From: a virus
Lineage: Duplodnaviria; Heunggongvirae; Uroviricota; Caudoviricetes; Demerecviridae
Strand: one strand, 5' to 3'
IMG/VR virus record: IMGVR_UViG_2974655058_000001
Coordinates: 7,652-71,651 of that record
Length of the DNA: 64,000 bases
This document shows, in pieces, positions 13,082 through 39,883 of this stretch. The notes under the pieces were generated by a model. It saw only the letters and a program-made list of their open reading frames with translations, was not told the origin of the DNA and made no database searches. Both the position numbers and the translations under genes were made by a program. Every line of letters starts with the position of its first letter. Positions within the stretch are counted from its first letter, which is position 1.

Positions 13082-13495
13082 TTAAACTAGTTCGACATGA
13101 CCGCCATCATAGGTACCACGTTTTATTTCATCGTGATAATCTCCCGAAGCATTCCAATCAGCACCAAAACGAAGTTTAATGCCTAGTTCTTTACCTGCTT
13201 GTTCAAAAGCCTTTTTAACTGCCCAAAATGCTTCTAAATCATTCCAATCAATCTTACCATTAATGTATGGAGCAAAATCAAGAGCATCCCCAGTAATATG
13301 CTTGCTTTTACTAGGATCTTTTAAGAATGAAGTACCATTAGCAATATTCTGGGCACTTTGTGCTACTGTACGAATACCCTGTACGATCGTGAAATCATAA
13401 GGAGATAATTCTAAAGCTCTACGAGCTACTTTTTGTAGCTCTGGCTTAACGGTAGCTAATTGTTTTTCGCTATTTTTACCAAATTTAAAACTCAT
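13082..13495 (-). CDS. endolysin, peptidase M15 (L-alanyl-D-glutamate peptidase-like)
   Basis: VanY/M15 H..D..H signature (HITGDALDF...DGGHVE); T5 Lys is of this class. Confidence 0.8.
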   Translation of the reverse strand: MSFKFGKNSEKQLATVKPELQKVARRALELSPYDFTIVQGIRTVAQSAQNIANGTSFLKDPSKSKHITGDALDFAPYINGKIDWNDLEAFWAVKKAFEQAGKELGIKLRFGADWNASGDYHDEIKRGTYDGGHVELV

Positions 13496-14148
13496 ATTGA
13501 TCTACCTAAAGATCTCTGTTGTGGGGAACAGAGCTTTGTTAAATACTCGTTAAATTTCTCAGAATCGGCTGCATCTACAGGATTATCTTTCCAAGCAATA
13601 CCAATATATCCAGCATAGATATTGTTTAGATTGAAGTACGGACAAGTGTATATGTAATTAAAAGTAACGTTCTTAAACGCAGGTATATTTAACCCCATGT
13701 ATTTATTTACTTTTACACTTAAATCCGATGCGTAGTTAAAGCCGTCTAAGTGACGTCTATATAGCTCAGACGTCTTATTTACCGCTTTATCGGCCAAGTC
13801 AGCCCTATCTAATTGCGCATTGCTTTCCCATGCAATAATGTTAGAATAATCATTAATGGCATCGGGTTTATACTTGACTACAAAAACAGCATCCGCACCC
13901 GTTTGGGAAAAAAGCACCATGCTCTTTTCTCTAGCTACGTTAGGAAAATTACTTATCCTTTGAGTTTGAACATCCTGTAGAACCGCAGACGTGGAGAAAG
14001 TCTTTAAGAACGACATCACTTCACTAGTATTACTAACAAATAAGAAAATAATGACAGCAACTAAGATAGTTAGCAGACGTTTAAGAAGCGATGCTGGATC
14101 TTTCGCTTCTTGGAGCAGTACCGTTAATAATTGTAAGAACTTTTCCAA
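13492..14148 (-). CDS. putative holin (218 aa, N-terminal TM), translationally coupled to the endolysin
   Basis: ATGA overlap with the endolysin gene; single TM near the N-terminus. Confidence 0.5.
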   Translation of the reverse strand: MEKFLQLLTVLLQEAKDPASLLKRLLTILVAVIIFLFVSNTSEVMSFLKTFSTSAVLQDVQTQRISNFPNVAREKSMVLFSQTGADAVFVVKYKPDAINDYSNIIAWESNAQLDRADLADKAVNKTSELYRRHLDGFNYASDLSVKVNKYMGLNIPAFKNVTFNYIYTCPYFNLNNIYAGYIGIAWKDNPVDAADSEKFNEYLTKLCSPQQRSLGRSI

Positions 14149-14916: not shown

Positions 14917-15669
14917 TTATCCAACTAGTGGTTCTAGCTCTAAGTCACAGAAGTTATAAACTTCTAGTTTAAGGTTATTGATACCATCGAATTTATTAAC
15001 TAATTCGTGAGTAATATATTTTGCAGGAATACCACTTTCAGATGGATGATCTGATTTAATAGTGAACTTCTGCTCAGCGGGTACTACATTTACTATCAAA
15101 GAAGCCATATCTAAATGGTTTGTTTCTCTGAGTAACTCTCCTTCATTGGGGAATCTAACATCTGTTATTACGGCGACATCTGGGTCGTCTTTAGCGATGG
15201 ATTGCTCCAGAATTATGAGCCAAATGCGTTCATGTACCAGCTGCCTTCCTAGCTCTGTTCCTACGAGCTGTAACATTTTTCTCGGAGAAATAAATAAACT
15301 ATAAAGTCCGTCTTCTTTATTCTCTGAGATAAGTTGTTGAGGATTAAGATATTTTTCCTCAAAAATCGGCCAAACGTACGAGAAGTCTTCAAACTTATCG
15401 ATACCGTATTTAAACCATACGTCTCTAGCTCGCTCCAATTGAGATTGTGTGACCGTAAACCATTGGTCAATCTCTTTTCCCCTGCGCTCTCCTAGAAACT
15501 CTGGAGTTACACCGAGGATTACGGATGCAAGTTCATAAACGGGCTTAGCAAAACTATAACGACGGGCTAAATACATTGGATACGTGTCATTACACCAATC
15601 GATAATTAATTTTGCAACGGTATCTTTTCCCGAACCAGCTTCACCATGTAAACCGACTAATACTGACAT
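14917..15669 (-). CDS. deoxynucleoside monophosphate kinase-like P-loop protein
   Basis: GEAGSGKDT Walker A; size and context like a phage dNMP kinase. Confidence 0.55.
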   Translation of the reverse strand: MSVLVGLHGEAGSGKDTVAKLIIDWCNDTYPMYLARRYSFAKPVYELASVILGVTPEFLGERRGKEIDQWFTVTQSQLERARDVWFKYGIDKFEDFSYVWPIFEEKYLNPQQLISENKEDGLYSLFISPRKMLQLVGTELGRQLVHERIWLIILEQSIAKDDPDVAVITDVRFPNEGELLRETNHLDMASLIVNVVPAEQKFTIKSDHPSESGIPAKYITHELVNKFDGINNLKLEVYNFCDLELEPLVG

Positions 15670-16022
15670 TAATCTTTCCTATTGTTAATTGGTGGATAAT
15701 ATACTAAACAACGTTTTTCTTGCAAATCTTGGCGGTAGAAGCAAACCATACTTGTCAGTCGTGAGATATATGAATATTCTGCCTCACGGCATTTTGCCAA
15801 CATATTCCAATCTTTATATGGTACGACTACTACTACGCCATCTTCTCCATTTGTAGCTAATTTCTTTTCAAACTTAAAGTCAAAGCTACAAGGTTGAAGC
15901 CCTTTAGGCCAGTCCACATGAGCTGTTGGTAGTTCATGTGTAGGTTCTGGCTTTATTTCCTGTGCACAGCCTGTGATTGTGATTGCGGCTGCGAGCAGTA
16001 TTCCAAGTTTCCAGTTAAACAT
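15669..16022 (-). CDS. outer-membrane lipoprotein (o-spanin candidate)
   Basis: signal peptide plus ITGC lipobox; overlaps the upstream TM/coiled-coil gene. Confidence 0.55.
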   Translation of the reverse strand: MFNWKLGILLAAAITITGCAQEIKPEPTHELPTAHVDWPKGLQPCSFDFKFEKKLATNGEDGVVVVVPYKDWNMLAKCREAEYSYISRLTSMVCFYRQDLQEKRCLVYYPPINNRKD

Positions 16023-20488: not shown

Positions 20489-20584
20489 ATTATGTTTTAT
20501 TAGACTAAGTAAGTATTCTTTATACTCTATAGACCAATTAGCTTTTTTAAACTTTCCTGGACGCATAGTCTTAATTCCTAAATT

Positions 20585-20661
20585 TGGTACTCCGGGAGGG
20601 ATTTAAACCCCCGATCTCTCGGTTATCAGCCGAGTGCTTTAGATCGCTAAGCTACCGAAGC
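20585..20661 (-). tRNA. tRNA-Ile (GAT)
   Basis: acceptor GCTTCGG/CCGGAGT, anticodon loop CTGATAA, CCA encoded. Confidence 0.75.
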
Positions 20662-20662
20662 A

Positions 20663-20869
20663 TTAACATTTAATTGCAGAACGTTTACCATTTCTAGGCG
20701 CACCTGGAAGTCGTGCACGTTCTGCCATTCTTCGCTTAATCTTTGAGATATTTTCTAGTGTTTGTTCTTCAGGCTTAATACCTGAAACACTACACCACTG
20801 ATTACCATCCCATGCGGTAATGATCATAACACCATTACCCGTAATCTTTTCTGTGAAAGTAATTCTCAT
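20663..20869 (-). CDS. hypothetical small protein
   Basis: ORF track; start trimmed to the TAATG overlap. Confidence 0.45.
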   Translation of the reverse strand: MRITFTEKITGNGVMIITAWDGNQWCSVSGIKPEEQTLENISKIKRRMAERARLPGAPRNGKRSAIKC

Positions 20870-21162
20870 TATAGCAACTCGTCTAAGCAAGAGGTATATT
20901 TAAGTTTACCATCTTTATCTACTTTGATTTCGACTTCCGCCCGTGGTACTTGACGAACTACACCATGAATCATCTTATAGTTAATAGACTTAGACGGTTC
21001 ATAATCTTTTGGAAAGACTTGCTTAACCGTTACTACCTTGTACCCATCACGCGGTGTTAGTACAACTACTTGATCGCCTTCTTTGATTTTCCAAGAAGAT
21101 GGAAATTCATAGGTATAGCGTTGACCACCAGTTTGGAACATAACAGAAAGATAACGTTTCAT
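20869..21162 (-). CDS. hypothetical protein
   Basis: ORF track plus an upstream promoter module. Confidence 0.5.
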   Translation of the reverse strand: MKRYLSVMFQTGGQRYTYEFPSSWKIKEGDQVVVLTPRDGYKVVTVKQVFPKDYEPSKSINYKMIHGVVRQVPRAEVEIKVDKDGKLKYTSCLDELL

Positions 21163-29067: not shown

Positions 29068-29496
29068 CTAGCAAATTTTTTCACCAGCAGGATCATTATC
29101 TCCGATAGCTACCAATTTAAAAGGTAGTAGCTTTAGTTGCTTTAATAGGGCTTTTCCTGGAGAAGAACCCAACATTGCTAGGGCGGGATAACCAGCGTTA
29201 TGTAACGCAACTGCCTTAAATACAGATTCAGCAATCAATACTACTTTTTCATCTCCAGTGAGGGTTTCTAGTCCCCATACACACTGTGTAGTAGAATAAG
29301 TAAAATATCTAGCTTCAAAGGGACACTTACCATGACCTTTTGGAGCAGAAGGATTATACGTCTGATAGCCTCTCAACATCCCAGAGAAGTCATACAATGG
29401 GACTGTTAGCCATCCTTCCGGGCTTAACCAGCAATGATATTTATCTGTATCAAACCCTCTAGATAAGAGGTGTTCTGTTAGTTCATCAACAGTCAT
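29068..29496 (-). CDS. TOPRIM-domain protein (primase C-terminal-like paralog lacking the Zn finger)
   Basis: VVLIAESVF...VAIGDNDPAG matches the TOPRIM E...DxD signature, similar to the C-terminus of the primase at 62556..63446; start placed at the MTVDEL ATG after a promoter module. Confidence 0.55.
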   Translation of the reverse strand: MTVDELTEHLLSRGFDTDKYHCWLSPEGWLTVPLYDFSGMLRGYQTYNPSAPKGHGKCPFEARYFTYSTTQCVWGLETLTGDEKVVLIAESVFKAVALHNAGYPALAMLGSSPGKALLKQLKLLPFKLVAIGDNDPAGEKIC

Positions 29497-29671
29497 ACTA
29501 GATTCCTCTCTCAAATTTATAAATATATTATACAGAGAATTTAGCATTCAAGCAATTGAATTTTTTAACTTTTTAGAGGAAAATCACAGGATGCTTAAGG
29601 GTAGCAGGTAAGTGGTCAGGACCGAAATTTGTGACCCCACTAAAAATCTGTGGGCAATTTTTAAAGACCCC

Positions 29672-29700
29672 TTGACATTTTTGCTGGGGTAGTGTAAAGT
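29672..29700 (+). promoter_or_regulatory. consensus sigma70 promoter for the plus-strand cassette
   Basis: TTGACA, 17-nt spacer, TAAAGT. Confidence 0.65.
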
Positions 29701-29762
29701 ATATGTTATGGATGAGTGATCAAAGAGACACACATTTTCTATATACTAGGAGGTGTCAAAAA

Positions 29763-30743
29763 ATGACAGAAGAAGTAGCTAAGAGTCCTGAAACCGTCGC
29801 TAGCGTAGCAGCAGAACTGCATCGTCACGAGGAATCAGATAAGAAAAAGTGGGAGAAAGTCAAAGCCTACGAAGAAGAACATCGTGAACACGATGAAGAT
29901 GATGAAGAAGATGACGATGATGAACATTGTCATAAATATGGAAAACATAAAATGCAAGAACCAGTAAACGTATTTACTAACGGCTTCCCTGGCATGGGTG
30001 CATTCCCAGCTAACGCAAGTGCTTTCGGTGGAGAAGGTATGGGTCTATTCGGAGCTATCTTAATCGGTGCTCTATTAACAGGCGGATTTGGTGGGTTTGG
30101 TGGTTTTGGTCGCGGTGCTGGCGTTGCCGCTGAAGGAACTGCTGTGGACGCGATCCTTTCTAACCAAGATACTGCAAGTATTCTAGCTGCAATTAACACT
30201 ACTCGTACAGAAGCTAACCAGGGCACTGGGGCTGTTCTAAGTGCAGTAAACGGTGTGGGAGCTGCTCAAGCTGCTAGCACTCAGCAAGTTCTGACTACTA
30301 TCTACGGTACAGGTGCTAATCTGTCAAACCAGATCTGTGCTGAAACTCGTAACGTTATTCAGGGTCAGTTCGATCTTTCTCGTCAGATGGATCAATCTTT
30401 CGCTGCTAACCAGATAGCACGTGCTCAAGATAAGTTTGACTCTGCTCAGATTGCTTTCCAGCAGTCTATTCAGACCAACAACCAGTTTGCCGCTGTTCAG
30501 GCTCAGATGTGCGCTAACCAGAACGCTATCGAACGTCAGCTTGCGGAATGTTGCTGTGAGCTTCAGACTGCGATCGCTGGTGTAACTACTGCACGTATCC
30601 AGGACGAACTGAATGAATGCCGTCTGCGCGAAGCAATCGCTGCAGGTAGCGGTGCAAATGGTCAGGTAATCAACCAAATCGCTGTAAGTCTTGGTGCTAT
30701 CACTCAGACTCTGGCTGGTCTGCAGGCTAAACTGCCGGCTTAA
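29763..30743 (+). CDS. low-complexity G/A/Q-rich protein (His/acidic N-terminus, GFGGFGGFG hydrophobic segment)
   Basis: AGGAGG RBS 7 nt before the ATG at 29763 (the ORF track starts at an upstream in-frame ATG, 29703); host-like codon usage. Confidence 0.6.
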   Translation: MTEEVAKSPETVASVAAELHRHEESDKKKWEKVKAYEEEHREHDEDDEEDDDDEHCHKYGKHKMQEPVNVFTNGFPGMGAFPANASAFGGEGMGLFGAILIGALLTGGFGGFGGFGRGAGVAAEGTAVDAILSNQDTASILAAINTTRTEANQGTGAVLSAVNGVGAAQAASTQQVLTTIYGTGANLSNQICAETRNVIQGQFDLSRQMDQSFAANQIARAQDKFDSAQIAFQQSIQTNNQFAAVQAQMCANQNAIERQLAECCCELQTAIAGVTTARIQDELNECRLREAIAAGSGANGQVINQIAVSLGAITQTLAGLQAKLPA

Positions 30744-30764
30744 AATTAAGGGGAGGAGCCCATT

Positions 30765-31193
30765 ATGAGTAAATATGGTTTTGTGAACAACGGATTTAAT
30801 CAACCAATGGGCTCCCAGCAGCCCGTTCCGGGTCTGGATAATCCTTACCTACAACAGTTGCAACAGCGTTTAGCAGAAGCGCAACAGATGCAGCAACAAC
30901 TCCAGCAAAACCCTGGAAGTGTGAGTCCTATGCAAATGATGCAGCAAATGAGCGGGCAGTCGCAAATGCCTCAACAAATGCATCAACAGGTGGCTCAGCA
31001 ACAAGTTCAGCAGCAAGTTCAGCAGCAAACCCAACAACCGCAGGTTTCTGCGGAAGGACAGGCAGTACTAGCCCTTTTCGAAGACTTCGCAAAGACAGAG
31101 GATGGGAAGCAGCTTGTATCACTTATGGGTAAGTTTAATAGCTTCTGCCAAAGCCAAATTGCAAAAGCTCAAAATAGCGGTAATAACTCCTAA
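30765..31193 (+). CDS. Q/N-rich prion-like low-complexity protein
   Basis: GGGGAGGAG RBS; poly-Q/QQ-V repeats. Confidence 0.6.
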   Translation: MSKYGFVNNGFNQPMGSQQPVPGLDNPYLQQLQQRLAEAQQMQQQLQQNPGSVSPMQMMQQMSGQSQMPQQMHQQVAQQQVQQQVQQQTQQPQVSAEGQAVLALFEDFAKTEDGKQLVSLMGKFNSFCQSQIAKAQNSGNNS

Positions 31194-31202
31194 GGAGGAA
31201 TT

Positions 31203-31397
31203 ATGTGTTGCAGAAAATCTGTTTCGTGCTGCCCAATGCATGTAGCACGTTGTTGCTCTCCAGCAATGTTTACGCAAATACCGGCGTTCAATCCGTTTGC
31301 CTTTAAGCCTACTCTTATCCTGCCCCCTAGAGTAGATTTTCAGTCAAGATTGGCCTCCCGTATGGGTGGTTGCTGTAACAAGAGTATATGGTTCTAA
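31203..31397 (+). CDS. Cys-rich peptide with four CC doublets (64 aa)
   Basis: AAGGAGG RBS 5 nt before the ATG; MCC..SCC..RCC..GCC. Confidence 0.45.
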   Translation: MCCRKSVSCCPMHVARCCSPAMFTQIPAFNPFAFKPTLILPPRVDFQSRLASRMGGCCNKSIWF

Positions 31398-31410
31398 GGA
31401 ACCAAACAAT

Positions 31411-31447
31411 AAAGCCCCTAGTCGAAAGACTTAGGGGCTTTTCTTTT
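31411..31447 (+). terminator. rho-independent terminator ending the plus-strand cassette
   Basis: AAGCCCCTAGTC-GAAA-GACTTAGGGGCTTTTCTTTT. Confidence 0.7.
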
Positions 31448-31462
31448 ATCTTAAATACAGAA

Positions 31463-31500
31463 AAGCCCGCGCTCTCGGAGGAAACGCGGGCTTGGTTCGA
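31463..31500 (-). terminator. rho-independent terminator for the SPFH gene (minus strand)
   Basis: GCCCGCG...CGCGGGC stem followed by TTTTCTGTATTT on the minus strand. Confidence 0.65.
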
Positions 31501-31516
31501 AGATTACGTGTAACTA

Positions 31517-32464
31517 TTACTTGTTACGCATATCCATGATCATTTGACCATCGTAGCCAGTACCTACTACAGTCTGAGGCACACCACCTTGATATTTCTG
31601 AGCACGAATCATCTCAACTTCCAGTTGTTTCCAACGAATCATCTCAGGAGTAATGGTACGTTGCAGTGCGGCGTTAGCTTCAGCTTCTTTCTTAGCTGCG
31701 TACAGTTTAGCATCTGCGTCACGTTCATTAGCGATAGCTTGGTTGTTGCGAGCTTCACGATCTGCTTCTGCTTGTTTAACTTTTTGCTGTGCTTCCTGTT
31801 CAACACGAGCTAATTCAGCTTTAGCAGCATTAACCTGTTCTTCACGAACTTTGGTATTCTGTACCTGTTCCATGATTACCGGTGGCAAAGTAATATCCTG
31901 AAGGAATACCTGCTTAACTGTGTAACCATATGGGCGTGCATACTCTTCAACTTCCTGTTGAATTGCAGTTTGCAATTGAGCCTGAATTTTAGCATCAAAC
32001 AAATCTTGTGCTTTAGGTACAGACTTACCAAACTCACGAATAGTAGACAGTAATTTTTCAGTTACATACTTGTCTAGTGCCTGATCCTGAGTACCTGCAT
32101 TAATACGGTTAATCGGTGCCTTAGAACCATCAAACTGCAACATAACAGTCAGGTCAACAGTGGATTTAAACTTATCCTGACTAGGAACCTGAAGTTTATC
32201 TAATTTTACAGCAATATCTTTTGTACTGAAAGTATCGAAAGATGCAAACGGGTTTACAATATGGAAACCAGGTAATACTGGATTAGGGTCTACTTTACCC
32301 AGGAATGTTTGAGTTTTAACCGTACCATCAGAAACAATAGTATATGAATTAAAAGCTAGGATTAAACCTGCTAAACCAACTACAGCACCAATCCCCCAAC
32401 GTTTAATAGTACGAATTACTTTCTGCTCAGAAGTTAGTTCTTTCATATTTTTAGTATTAAACAT
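31517..32464 (-). CDS. SPFH/band-7 (prohibitin/HflK/C-like) membrane protein
   Basis: N-terminal TM, SPFH core, long C-terminal coiled coil EAQQKVKQAEADREARN... Confidence 0.7.
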   Translation of the reverse strand: MFNTKNMKELTSEQKVIRTIKRWGIGAVVGLAGLILAFNSYTIVSDGTVKTQTFLGKVDPNPVLPGFHIVNPFASFDTFSTKDIAVKLDKLQVPSQDKFKSTVDLTVMLQFDGSKAPINRINAGTQDQALDKYVTEKLLSTIREFGKSVPKAQDLFDAKIQAQLQTAIQQEVEEYARPYGYTVKQVFLQDITLPPVIMEQVQNTKVREEQVNAAKAELARVEQEAQQKVKQAEADREARNNQAIANERDADAKLYAAKKEAEANAALQRTITPEMIRWKQLEVEMIRAQKYQGGVPQTVVGTGYDGQMIMDMRNK

Positions 32465-32498
32465 ATATTTCCTTTGTTTTAGTTACAGTTAATAAAAT

Positions 32499-32573
32499 TG
32501 GCCGAGGTGACAGGATTCGAACCTGCATAAAGGAATTTAGAAGACTCCTGCCTCTCCCTTAGACTACACCCCG
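32499..32573 (-). tRNA. tRNA-Arg (TCT)
   Basis: anticodon stem GGAGT/ATTCC, loop CTTCTAA. Confidence 0.7.
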
Positions 32574-33075
32574 TTTAAGTATTTTTAAGAACTCTCGTAA
32601 AAACTCTTAAAAATACAGACGATACCGGGAGAGTCATAAGTCTCACTCATTAAGTATTTCAAGACAAAATACAGTAACGTCTATTATTTTCCAGTTTAAG
32701 TCAGGGTGACTTAGTGGTTATGTCCTGCGGTATATTGAGGACTCGGTTAGGCTTGGGGTCATGACTTCCCGCCTTTTGCTGCTACTCAACAGGAGTTATC
32801 GCGAATTACCTGTGCTATTGTGCACCATTAGTGACATCTCTCATGTCAGCATTTCCCACTTTGTGGATAGCTTGAAAAACTACTCCGATATGGAGAAAGA
32901 ACTTCACTATCCTAGAATACCTTCTAAAGTTCTTCTTTAGCCTGGACATAGTTAAATCGTAATAAAACTATTCAGCAGACTGGTTGGTTAGTCTGGAACC
33001 AACTACCGCGTGGTTTAGGCAGTGCGCAACTAACCTCGGAAGCTTTTACGTTAAAAGCATCAGTTATCCAGTTCT

Positions 33076-33147
33076 TACCGACCGTAGGATTCGAACCTAC
33101 ATCTTCCACCAGTTACGGCTTGATAATACCAATTATACTAGGACGGC
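33076..33147 (-). pseudogene. degenerate tRNA-like sequence (canonical T-arm and acceptor-like termini, no anticodon arm, no CCA)
   Basis: GTAGGTTCGAATCCTAC T-arm; GCCGTCC/GGTCGGT termini with one mismatch. Confidence 0.35.
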
Positions 33148-33407
33148 AGTGTTACTACATAAGTGATTTCCACACCCCACTATTTATAAATTAGAGAAGA
33201 GTTTAGGGGAGAGGTTTCAGACGCCTCATTTTACACGTTCTAGCCACTAACCGGGATTGCCGCCCCCTGTGTACTAGTTTTACAACTAACCCACCGACTC
33301 TATTCAATGCGCTCCGGTTGGGATTCTGCACTCAGCGTAATCGGCTCGCTGTTCCCTAATTTATGAATATATTATACAGAATTTATAAGCATTTAGCAAA
33401 TAAATTT

Positions 33408-34089: not shown

Positions 34090-34557
34090 TTAAGTTTTAG
34101 TGACAACAGGTTTATAAAACGTATGTCCCTTAATCTTAGTTGTTTTCTTAAACTTCTTTGTCCAGTAAGGTTTATCTTTACCACTATGGAAGTATAGTGC
34201 TCCATATGTAGGATCTTGTGGTAAATCAACGTAGTATATCACTCTAGCTAAATTCTTAGCGGTTTGCCAAGCCTCATCAGTTTTATCAACTTTTGGTCTC
34301 TTAGATACCCAAGAGAACTGGTTAGACTGATATACTACTTTACAGTAGGAATCTGGGAATTTACCGGAGTTTACACGGTTTTTAGTAACATGTGCAATCG
34401 CCGTCATTCCCTTTATGCCCTCACCACGACTTTCGAAATAGATATTTTTAGCAATGCAATCTATTTCTCTTGCATCGTGCGATGCCTGACTACTAAAGCT
34501 GAAGGTAAGGGCAGCTACTAAAAGCAAAGCTGCCTTCATTCTTTTTACTCCTGCCAA
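34090..34557 (-). CDS. SleB-like cell-wall hydrolase with a signal peptide
   Basis: signal peptide plus the NIYFESRGE...AHVTKNR Hydrolase_2 signature. Confidence 0.65.
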   Translation of the reverse strand: MAGVKRMKAALLLVAALTFSFSSQASHDAREIDCIAKNIYFESRGEGIKGMTAIAHVTKNRVNSGKFPDSYCKVVYQSNQFSWVSKRPKVDKTDEAWQTAKNLARVIYYVDLPQDPTYGALYFHSGKDKPYWTKKFKKTTKIKGHTFYKPVVTKT

Positions 34558-34862
34558 TCATATTCAACACGATTGGGATTTTCTTTGTACCCTAAGTCAA
34601 GCAAATCATTACGCATAGTTTGCTTAGCTACGGGATTCGAGGTTACTAGTACCACTTTCTTTGGTCTCTGCCCAAATTCTAAGAGTAAACGAAGAATTTG
34701 ATAACCTTCCATACCATCTACAGCCAAGTCATTATCCATATAAACGAAGTGGCCTGTGGTATCAGTTTTATTCAGAAACTCGACAGCGGCTTCGGGGGTT
34801 CGAATGATAATGTCCATTCCGTGAAGATTACGCACATCATCAATCAAAATATGAAAAGTCAT
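34545..34862 (-). CDS. CheY-like receiver-domain-like protein (orphan)
   Basis: ILIDD...YMDNDLAVDGMEG...VLVTSN...K pattern resembles the receiver fold. Confidence 0.45.
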   Translation of the reverse strand: MTFHILIDDVRNLHGMDIIIRTPEAAVEFLNKTDTTGHFVYMDNDLAVDGMEGYQILRLLLEFGQRPKKVVLVTSNPVAKQTMRNDLLDLGYKENPNRVEYDWQE

Positions 34863-35304: not shown

Positions 35305-35943
35305 TTACTCTACTTCAATGAAAGTAGAGGCGTTAGACTCGGACAGAACAAAATCAACATTTGTTGCAAAGTCCTGGTATTCCTCGTCATGCTGTTTAAT
35401 CAGCTTCTCCAGTTCCAGCGGATCAATCAAGAATGGAGTATTCTTGAGTTCCAACAGGTTGAGCTGCATTTTAACTTCATCTTCGGAAGTTTTCTTATCG
35501 CGGGTAGCCATGCTATCCTGCAAACGCTCATATTTAGCATCAAACTGTGCTTTCTGCGTATTAAACTTAACCGTAGCGGCATGGAACTGCTTACGCATGT
35601 TAGCCAGCAGTTGAGCTTTAAGTTCCATAGAACGCTTAGCTTCAATTGCTTCCGCAACAGTCATCTTACGAGAGCCAATCTCAACGATTGTTTCCGCATT
35701 GCTTTTAATCAGAGCAGCTTTGATACGATCACGCTGGGACATCATATCCAGCAGAGACTGGAAATCAGTCTTAATACGAGTAGACAGATCAGCTACTTCG
35801 ATTGCAGCGCCAACTACAACCTGGTTTTTATCCTTACCTTCACCAACAGCGATCAGAAGCTGCTGTTCAGTAGCTTTACGGATTTTAGCTTCCAGAGATT
35901 TGATAGTTGCTAGAGCACGAGTTTTAGAAATACGAGTGGTCAT
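35305..35943 (-). CDS. coiled-coil hypothetical protein with host-optimal codon usage
   Basis: ORF track; rich in ctg/gct/cgt codons. Confidence 0.6.
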   Translation of the reverse strand: MTTRISKTRALATIKSLEAKIRKATEQQLLIAVGEGKDKNQVVVGAAIEVADLSTRIKTDFQSLLDMMSQRDRIKAALIKSNAETIVEIGSRKMTVAEAIEAKRSMELKAQLLANMRKQFHAATVKFNTQKAQFDAKYERLQDSMATRDKKTSEDEVKMQLNLLELKNTPFLIDPLELEKLIKQHDEEYQDFATNVDFVLSESNASTFIEVE

Positions 35944-39507: not shown

Positions 39508-39883
39508 CTAACCATCCTATATCTATACTAAGTAATGCTTTTATTCCTGTAATACCTGTACCATAAGTATTATACCGAATAGCACTTCTGCTCTTTACTT
39601 CAAGTATATTTTCATGCTCTGTATTTTCTAGAATTTCTGTAGATATACCTAAATATCCTACTTGATCTTCCTCATCCCAACCCATATCTTCTAGGAGATT
39701 TAGACATAACTCTACCTTCTCATCTCCATTGCCTACAGAGTAGTAGTCTTCTAAAGTCCTGAATTTAGAAGTGATAGAGTCTAGTATTAATAATACCTGT
39801 TCCTTAGTAATAGTTTCTTTATCACCCTGCAAGTAATTGGAGTAATTCAGAAGGGCTTGTTCTAATTCAATTTCTTTACTCAT
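39500..39883 (-). CDS. hypothetical protein
   Basis: ORF track. Confidence 0.5.
   Translation of the reverse strand: MSKEIELEQALLNYSNYLQGDKETITKEQVLLILDSITSKFRTLEDYYSVGNGDEKVELCLNLLEDMGWDEEDQVGYLGISTEILENTEHENILEVKSRSAIRYNTYGTGITGIKALLSIDIGWLDE

Follow-up and report, generated by a model that had tools for sequence, protein, structure and literature searches.

The locus described here raises the question of why a phage should encode an SPFH/band-7 protein. The gene lies on the minus strand, at positions 31517..32464, of a 64-kb stretch of phage DNA (the whole stretch is called the window below), and it codes from an ATG start for a protein of 315 amino acids. It was called from the list of open reading frames (ORFs), matches to Pfam Band_7 and PHROG 200, and synteny. 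The window was identified as Salmonella phage VSe12 (Tequintavirus), with 100% identity between positions 31300-32700 and NC_048794 38951-40351; the coding sequence is likewise 100% identical to NC_048794 39168-40115 (VSe12 HWC50_gp143). The explanation we favor is that the product forms an early-expressed, inner-membrane, periplasm-facing, homo-oligomeric SPFH cage that would serve the phage as an accessory factor. We put the probability of this reading at about 0.6.

A first-pass annotation of the window had described the product as a phage-encoded SPFH/band-7 protein, and this was borne out. Pfam Band_7 (PF01145) matched residues 52-225 with 64.4 bits against a cut-off of 23.6 bits (E=1.8e-17), PHROG 200 matched with E=2e-86, and a structural model of the protein matched solved SPFH cages in Foldseek. 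The profile searches placed the protein among the SPFH proteins and not in a different family. The gene stands where T5.080 stands in phage T5, between tRNA-Arg and a convergent gene cassette, and is almost certainly the T5.080 orthologue. A ribosome-binding site, AAGGA (32470..32474, minus strand), lies 5 nt before the ATG; the record of phage Lindwurm has one annotated there as well.

The structural model was built with AlphaFold2 from a family alignment of 19 sequences and has a mean predicted local distance difference test score (pLDDT) of 79. It consists of a helix at residues 12-38, an alpha/beta SPFH core at 41-192, an uninterrupted helix at 195-270, a further helix at 273-291, and two short terminal strands. 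The N-terminal transmembrane (TM) helix of the first-pass annotation was recovered as a signal anchor at residues ~23-39 (32348..32398, minus strand, as are the other parts of the protein), on the evidence of hydropathy, flanking charges and the modeled helix 12-38. It is the only hydrophobic segment of the protein, and the hydropathy peak covers residues 20-44. The SPFH core (31889..32344) was delimited by the modeled secondary structure, by Foldseek, and by the conserved motifs VPSQDK, GK..P.AQDLF, and YGY of the SPFH family alignment. The long Ala/Gln/Glu-rich coiled coil (CC) that had been annotated corresponds in the model to a 76-residue helix rich in Ala, Glu, Lys, and Gln. Together, CC1 (195-270) and CC2 (273-291) make up a helical region (31592..31882), defined by the model, the composition and the indels, which is predicted to form the wall and roof of a cage. 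The 71 residues from 205 to 275 include 18 A, 11 E, 7 K, 7 Q, and 6 R. In the family alignment the long helix is among the best-conserved parts (ANERDADAKLYAA.KEAEAN..LQ.TITPEM), and the differences in its length are all exactly +11 or +22, so that 17, 28 or 39 residues lie between fixed anchors. The protein ends with a conserved segment, KYQGGVPQTVVG..GYDGQMIMDMR (31520..31591), recognized from its conservation in the alignment and from the two short predicted strands (299-302 and 308-311), whose pLDDT of ~50 means low confidence in the monomer.

Comparison of the model with solved cage subunits by Foldseek gave alignments of 270-305 columns, with a probability of 1.00 for erlin, PHB, HflK/C, stomatin, QmcA, and flotillin. 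The E-values were 2e-14 for erlin1/2, 6.6e-13 for PHB1/2, 6.6e-12 for HflK/C (~300 columns), 2e-11 for stomatin, 1.4e-10 for QmcA, 2e-8 for flotillin and 2e-6 for major vault protein. When the family profile was run against PDB sequences, QmcA was matched at 1.9e-7, PHB1 and PHB2 at ~5e-5 and HflC weakly at 7e-3; HflK was not listed. By sequence, then, the prohibitins stand behind QmcA, whereas the fold puts erlin and prohibitin first by small margins. None of the NCBIfam models, those for HflK and HflC included, matched the 315-aa protein at E<=0.01, and neither did any PADLOC model at the same threshold. Membership in a known anti-phage defence family was rejected on the latter result. Identity with HflK/HflC at the equivalog level was also rejected, as neither an NCBIfam match nor a paralogue pair was found. 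In terms of the predicted model, the protein is a genuine SPFH protein and has every part of the cage-subunit architecture (TM, SPFH, CC1, CC2, and C-terminal segment). It fits no characterised SPFH subfamily, because no NCBIfam model matches it and its similarity to QmcA, prohibitin, erlin, and HflK/C is about equal. The wording "HflK/C-like" in the first-pass annotation was too specific for a single gene with these properties and overstates the data.

The likenesses and differences to the characterized complexes are nonetheless instructive for the question of function. The E. coli HflK/HflC proteins (PDB 7vhq, 7wi3, 9cz2) and the phage protein have in common an N-terminal TM segment with a cytoplasmic N-terminus and a periplasmic SPFH domain (both predicted for the phage protein), the SPFH core, the long CC helix, the C-terminal cap segment, and the lack of an NfeD partner. 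Unlike the operon-encoded HflK/HflC pair, the phage has one gene and a predicted homo-oligomer, and its protein lacks the long cytoplasmic N-terminal extension of HflK. The prohibitins PHB1/PHB2 of the mitochondrial inner membrane (PDB 8rrh, 9o9z) share with it a length of ~270-315 aa, a short N-terminal anchor, and a domain predicted to lie on the side that is topologically equivalent to the periplasm. They differ in that the phage has a single subunit type, and the identity is only 16-19%. E. coli QmcA-YbbJ (PDB 8z5g) provides the best match among PDB sequences and is of similar length; the entry holds 26 QmcA chains, as would fit a large ring built from a single kind of SPFH subunit. An NfeD protein accompanies QmcA, whereas none was found for the phage protein among the neighbours examined. 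The SPFH domain of QmcA faces the cytoplasm. The charge bias of the phage protein predicts the opposite orientation. With respect to NfeD, the first-pass annotation had stated that no such partner is present, and this held in the set that was searched: no NfeD Pfam match was obtained among the immediate neighbours or the 10 membrane-protein-like ORFs of the window (not every ORF was scanned). The same was true of the neighbours of the homologous genes in Pseudotevenvirus leB, an Aeromonas phage, a Vibrio phage, phage SE131, Morganella, and Methylophaga.

The orientation in the membrane was predicted from the charges that flank the TM helix. Residues 1-22 contain 6 K/R and 2 D/E, the 15 residues after the hydrophobic segment are net neutral, and every one of the 19 aligned family members shows the positive bias of the N-terminal flank. 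Under the positive-inside rule, the N-terminus would probably be cytoplasmic and the SPFH domain would face the periplasm. Distant relatives with an N-terminal extension possess an extra TM helix followed by a strongly basic, K/R-rich loop, and for this reason their SPFH domain is again predicted to lie outside. Concerning the oligomeric state, a profile search of all six-frame ORFs in the window revealed no second SPFH ORF, and tblastn located the gene at one place per phage record. Any SPFH ring would therefore be homo-oligomeric. The +11/+22 indels keep the helical register, as expected for a helix packed laterally in a barrel wall. Judged from these sequence features, assembly of the protein into a homo-oligomeric cage is probable.

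The SPFH gene is a correct finding but it is already known at the annotation level. The SPFH domain of the T4-like homologues was tabulated in 2006 (PMC1524935). The T5 record notes both SPFH similarity and a single TM segment for T5.080, many GenBank records of homologues read "SPFH domain protein", and one source names a close homologue in Pantoea phage Phynn a "prohibitin family protein". The first-pass annotation had allowed that the gene might be universal and annotated already; among T5-like phages it is indeed near-universal, with annotations in place, and no different role has been established for it.

By tblastn, the protein was found in 726 phage records. They include T5-like phages, Pseudotevenvirus and related Klebsiella, Cronobacter, and Enterobacter phages (73-79% identity), 7-11/SE131-like Grimontviridae (72%), Aeromonas T4-like phages (~60%) and, more distantly, N4-like Vibrio phages (~31-35%). 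The T4-like proteins RB43ORF139c, 44RRORF098c, and Aeh1ORF064c are direct homologues with 60-79% identity. Near-universality among the T5-likes is indicated by megablast, in which 448 T5-like records matched the SPFH locus as compared with 441 for the adjacent YqeY-like and hydrolase genes; the host breakdowns of the two sets are identical. The ratio of non-synonymous to synonymous substitution rates (dN/dS) was 0.013 versus T5 (dS 0.32) and 0.010 versus Lindwurm, with a range of 0.008-0.013 within the T5-likes. The gene is under very strong purifying selection and, given its presence in 726 records and its dN/dS versus T5, it is not a chance ORF. At the same time, one natural isolate has lost most of it. 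In the Epseptimavirus isolate NG_S8 (an E. coli phage; LC788711, 3750-4400; labelled as a complete sequence), an in-frame deletion removed residues 19-273 and joined residues 1-18 to 274-315. NG_S8 also lacks the stretch equivalent to window positions 29610-31365, which contains the convergent cassette. Because a natural isolate has lost these residues, the SPFH gene appears dispensable for propagation, that is, accessory.

With thresholds of E<=1e-30, E<=1e-10, and E<=1e-3, an exhaustive profile search of 1.84 billion proteins returned 84, 368, and only 2048 representative clusters, respectively. The family is a distinct SPFH clade. Its members include chromosomal genes in surroundings that do not look like prophages, namely in Morganella morganii (locus L020, 4968-5939), Providencia vermicola (locus L012) and Methylophaga (locus L044, 4977-5870). 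Those of Morganella and Providencia, which are surrounded by ordinary metabolic and transport genes, share 57-59% identity with the phage protein and 90% with each other. For the copies of Methylophaga and Methylococcaceae the identity to the phage protein is 35-41%, and one Methylophaga has the gene immediately after trpF-trpB-trpA-accD-folC. It was also observed that the Morganella and Providencia copies resemble the phage proteins (50-59%) more than they resemble other bacterial copies (34%), which suggests an old transfer between phage and host. SPFH proteins are also encoded by Vibrio phage pVa5, by Rhizobium and Streptomyces phages and by giant viruses, and BFVD contains 31 viral models of the SPFH fold at E<=1e-3, some of them from giant viruses. 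These more distant viral proteins (14-22% identity) represent separate acquisitions of the fold.

In T5, the gene belongs to the early/tRNA region behind promoter P16-17. The window contains a predicted sigma70-type promoter, TTGCTA-17-TATAAT, at 33399..33371 on the minus strand (10/12 matches in a consensus scan), which corresponds to P16-17 in the T5 annotation, and the unit that ends with the SPFH gene likely starts there. Next on the minus strand is a tRNA-like element (33076..33147; Rfam RF00005, 35.5 bits against a gathering score of 29), which RefSeq labels as a "tRNA-OTHER" pseudogene and ARAGORN did not call. It lies within the "RNAX" region of T5, a stretch of stable RNA of ~0.7 kb between the early promoter and tRNA-Arg. 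The tRNA-Arg(UCU) gene follows at 32499-32573 (minus strand; ARAGORN; Rfam tRNA 49.3 bits; syntenic with T5 tRNAR). Since tRNA-Arg and the SPFH gene are on the same strand and only 34 nt separate the tRNA from the SPFH ATG, the two are taken to be co-transcribed.

Downstream of the SPFH gene, a 126-nt region folds into two tandem hairpins (z=-5.9). The proximal one (31463..31493, minus strand) is an intrinsic terminator according to a terminator scan, RNA folding, and compensatory changes between T5 and VSe12. It has a 12-bp stem with 7 G-C pairs, followed by TTCTGTATTT, and its U-rich tail is present on the minus strand only. The stem reads CCCTG/CAGGG in T5 and CCCGCG/CGCGGG in VSe12, changes that keep the pairing. 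The second hairpin (31412..31441, assigned to neither strand) is T-rich on both sides and is common to the convergent plus-strand cassette, as seen from the T5 annotation and RNA folding. It is equivalent to T5 regulatory feature 39678-39720, an efficient bidirectional rho-independent terminator, and the Lindwurm record also annotates terminators at this place. Matches to anti-hemB and leader-like Rfam families in this region were far below the gathering scores and were discarded as generic hairpin matches. The order of the unit is thus promoter, tRNA-like element, tRNA-Arg, SPFH gene, and two tandem terminators. The "private terminator" of the first-pass annotation is strong, real and strand-specific; it does not serve the SPFH gene alone, because the gap between tRNA-Arg and the SPFH ATG is too short for a promoter, and the terminators close the longer, tRNA-containing unit. 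A separate observation concerns the GCGC at 31469-31472, inside the proximal hairpin, which is homologous to the major single-chain interruption of T5 at 39746/7 (32.6% of 121750 bp; consensus Pu|GCGC in the T5 misc_feature). T5 and VSe12 both retain the GCGC as well as the hairpin, and because the hairpin coincides with the interruption site, it may be a terminator and a nick site in one.

How such a protein could act is suggested by its cellular relatives. Its short basic N-terminus would remain in the cytoplasm and the SPFH domain would extend into the periplasm, as in HflK/C and mitochondrial prohibitin. Subunits standing side by side would form a homo-oligomeric ring: its TM helices would surround a patch of inner membrane, over which the long helices would close as a dome. 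Made early, after the shut-off of host gene expression, such a cage would let the phage govern a membrane microdomain, or the quality control of membrane proteins, until the cycle ends. Proteases of the FtsH family are regulated by HflK/C and prohibitin cages (PDB 7vhq, 7wi3, 9cz2). By analogy with these cages, the host protease FtsH or its membrane substrates are the leading candidate client, a tentative choice, and the phage cage would restrict the access of FtsH to phage or host membrane proteins. PMC12005517 reports that several membrane-related proteins, among them IspG and TonB, lose stability when HflKC is missing. A broader version of the idea appears doubtful to us: that the SPFH cage of at least four phage families, of a class without a close E. 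coli counterpart, would capture a host machine at the periplasmic face of the inner membrane. The four families are the T5-like, the RB43-like with Aeromonas T4-like, the 7-11-like and, more distantly, the N4-like phages.

Several points weigh against the favored explanation. Among the SPFH classes, the sequence similarity to HflK/HflC is the weakest, and at 16-19% identity the residues that contact FtsH cannot be mapped. The hosts already have HflK/C, so that the need for an additional FtsH modulator is not evident. The predicted topology is derived solely from the positive-inside rule. A conserved partner gene was looked for and rejected: the gene neighbourhoods differ by lineage, and none of them names a partner. 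Literature searches on T5.080 or its homologues yielded mentions at the annotation level and no functional study, and a 2026 paper states that the reason for an SPFH protein in a phage "remains unclear".

The same architecture and topology would also suit a protein that stabilizes membrane integrity or energetics without acting through FtsH. As a cage or scaffold, it would reinforce or organise the inner membrane in the manner of SPFH proteins linked to flotillin or PspA, holding the proton-motive force until the programmed time and so indirectly setting the timing of lysis. Holins trigger on depolarisation. A link to lysis is suggested by Pseudotevenvirus leB, in which the SPFH gene directly follows the rI antiholin gene (PF24205, E=7e-26) and rI.-1, and by the T-type holin with a large periplasmic domain that T5-likes and T4-likes both use (1980 phage records for the family). 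In Bacillus, a link between SPFH proteins and Psp membrane-stress systems has been reported. However, the rI adjacency falls in the tk-rI region, which is known to be plastic, and it is not kept in an Aeromonas T4-like phage, where ~3 kb of unrelated genes separate the SPFH gene from rI. In SE131, tblastn detected no T-type holin, although a 72%-identical SPFH gene is present. The T holin of the window itself (13492-14148, minus strand; PF11031, E=5e-113; a single TM segment) is 17 kb away from the SPFH gene. The link to the holin and rI is weak on account of SE131 and the Aeromonas phage, and as a specific lysis-inhibition mechanism it was rejected and kept as a minor rival. We consider the stabilizing role as a whole unlikely, though it is the main rival. 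Much less probable is that the gene and the convergent cassette at 29.7-31.4 kb (homologues of T5.077-079) function as a single module, a cooperation that the first-pass annotation had proposed. The two lie side by side and have a terminator region in common, a hydrophobic, Gly-rich segment means that the T5.077-like protein may be membrane-associated, and NG_S8 lacks both. Against this, the cassette proteins (homologues of T5.077/078) were found by tblastn in 223 phage records, all of them T5-likes plus three Pseudomonas phages. This corresponds to about half of the T5-likes, compared with the 448 T5-like records that have the SPFH gene (726 records in all). In leB, the Aeromonas phage, the Vibrio N4-like phage, and SE131, the SPFH gene has no such cassette beside it. 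Partial homologues of the C-terminal parts of the cassette occur in Pseudomonas phages KPP23/RSP, and the T5 record places the cassette on the opposite strand, under a promoter of its own. The cassette is not an obligate partner of the SPFH gene, and on this distribution a partnership of the two was rejected.

Two other roles would make the protein an exclusion factor of the envelope or a part of the virion, and the first of them originates in a label. Names in the T5.080 family vary among records (SPFH protein, transmembrane protein, lipoprotein), and "lipoprotein" is used in PHROG 200, in RefSeq, and in the T5 record. The whole 315-aa protein contains no cysteine, and none is present in 16 of the 19 aligned relatives. 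Without any Cys a lipobox is impossible, so the label is wrong; the identity of a bacterial lipoprotein of the Llp kind, which requires a lipobox Cys at the end of the signal peptide, was rejected on this basis. T4 Imm and Sp are early membrane proteins that act in exclusion. An early-expressed envelope protein such as this one could likewise act in superinfection exclusion or block a receptor, and an Llp-like function has been suggested by PMC12887010, which was misled by the label into likening the band-7 protein to T5 Llp, the FhuA blocker. In fact, the word "lipoprotein" in the labels is all that the two share. The SPFH protein is ~5x larger, has a different fold and no similarity to Llp, its predicted anchor is in the inner and not the outer membrane, no PADLOC model matches it, and its chromosomal relatives are found in housekeeping contexts. 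An exclusion role is thus improbable. A virion-associated function in adsorption or DNA entry, proposed for a Schitoviridae homologue (PMC13239085), seems more improbable still. The proteome of a Vi01-like phage contains three spectra of an SPFH protein, a number consistent with contamination; the gene is in an early, non-structural region of T5, its TM anchor is of the cellular type, and cellular relatives exist. Because these relatives lie in housekeeping contexts, a generic membrane role is preferred over a virion role. In sum, the protein is not a lipoprotein, it is not tied to the cassette, and its terminator is common to the tRNA unit.

In the window, the SPFH gene is flanked by a tRNA upstream and by the convergent genes downstream. 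An all-against-all comparison of the neighbourhoods in five phage lineages revealed no gene common to all five and only two shared neighbours, both of them between the T5-likes and SE131. They are an SleB-like hydrolase (Hydrolase_2, with a signal peptide) and a 212-aa T5.085-like protein, encoded on the minus strand of the window at 34090-34557 and 35305-35943, with counterparts in SE131 (locus L069) at 20545-21033 and 15057-15698. The hydrolase and the T5.085-like protein, labelled "tail fiber protein" and without a Pfam match, are 37% and 30% identical, respectively, between the T5-likes and SE131. In the T5-likes as in the unrelated SE131, these two genes are no more than a few kb from the SPFH gene, and the three may have been transferred together as a block of early genes directed at the envelope. 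SE131 also has, immediately before its SPFH gene on the upstream side, a gene for a 402-aa AAA/STAND-like ATPase (locus L069, 11904-13112), which does not occur at this place in the other lineages.

Some further features of the region were recorded. The convergent cassette (29703-31397, plus strand) contains three genes without Pfam domains. The 346-aa T5.077-like protein starts with an acidic N-terminus and includes a hydrophobic stretch rich in Gly, a Q/A-rich region, and a CCC motif. Gln is abundant in the T5.078-like protein (142 aa), which is mislabelled "cAMP-dependent protein kinase" in some records; the third ORF codes for 64 aa and is Cys-rich. A 159-aa ORF at 29068-29547 (minus strand) carries the label "DNA primase". 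It matches only the middle of primase PHROGs, where the Toprim part lies (positions 143-302 of 435), and is below the Pfam Toprim thresholds, and it is a stand-alone Toprim-like fragment and no full primase. The early T5.084 homologue at 34545-34862 (minus strand; 105 aa), hypothetical in RefSeq, matches cREC_REC (PF20274, E=1.4e-14), a cyclic-phosphate processing receiver domain.

The structures of SPFH cages (HflK/C, prohibitin, stomatin, erlin, and flotillin) have all been solved since 2022, and how they choose and act on their clients is debated. A small viral protein that is predicted to form a cage from a single subunit type, appears dispensable for plaque formation and yet is strongly constrained would offer a convenient handle on this question, and expression by a model phage in E. 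coli or Salmonella would add to its value. Correction of the "lipoprotein" label, which is widespread through PHROG 200 and RefSeq, concerns the whole T5.080 family. If the cage captures FtsH, it would be a viral structural mimic of HflK/C that reprograms membrane proteolysis after host shut-off; alternatively, the holin of the phage itself or other envelope proteins could be what it encloses. In either case, the finding would bear on how lytic phages manage the inner membrane of the host once host gene expression has been shut off.

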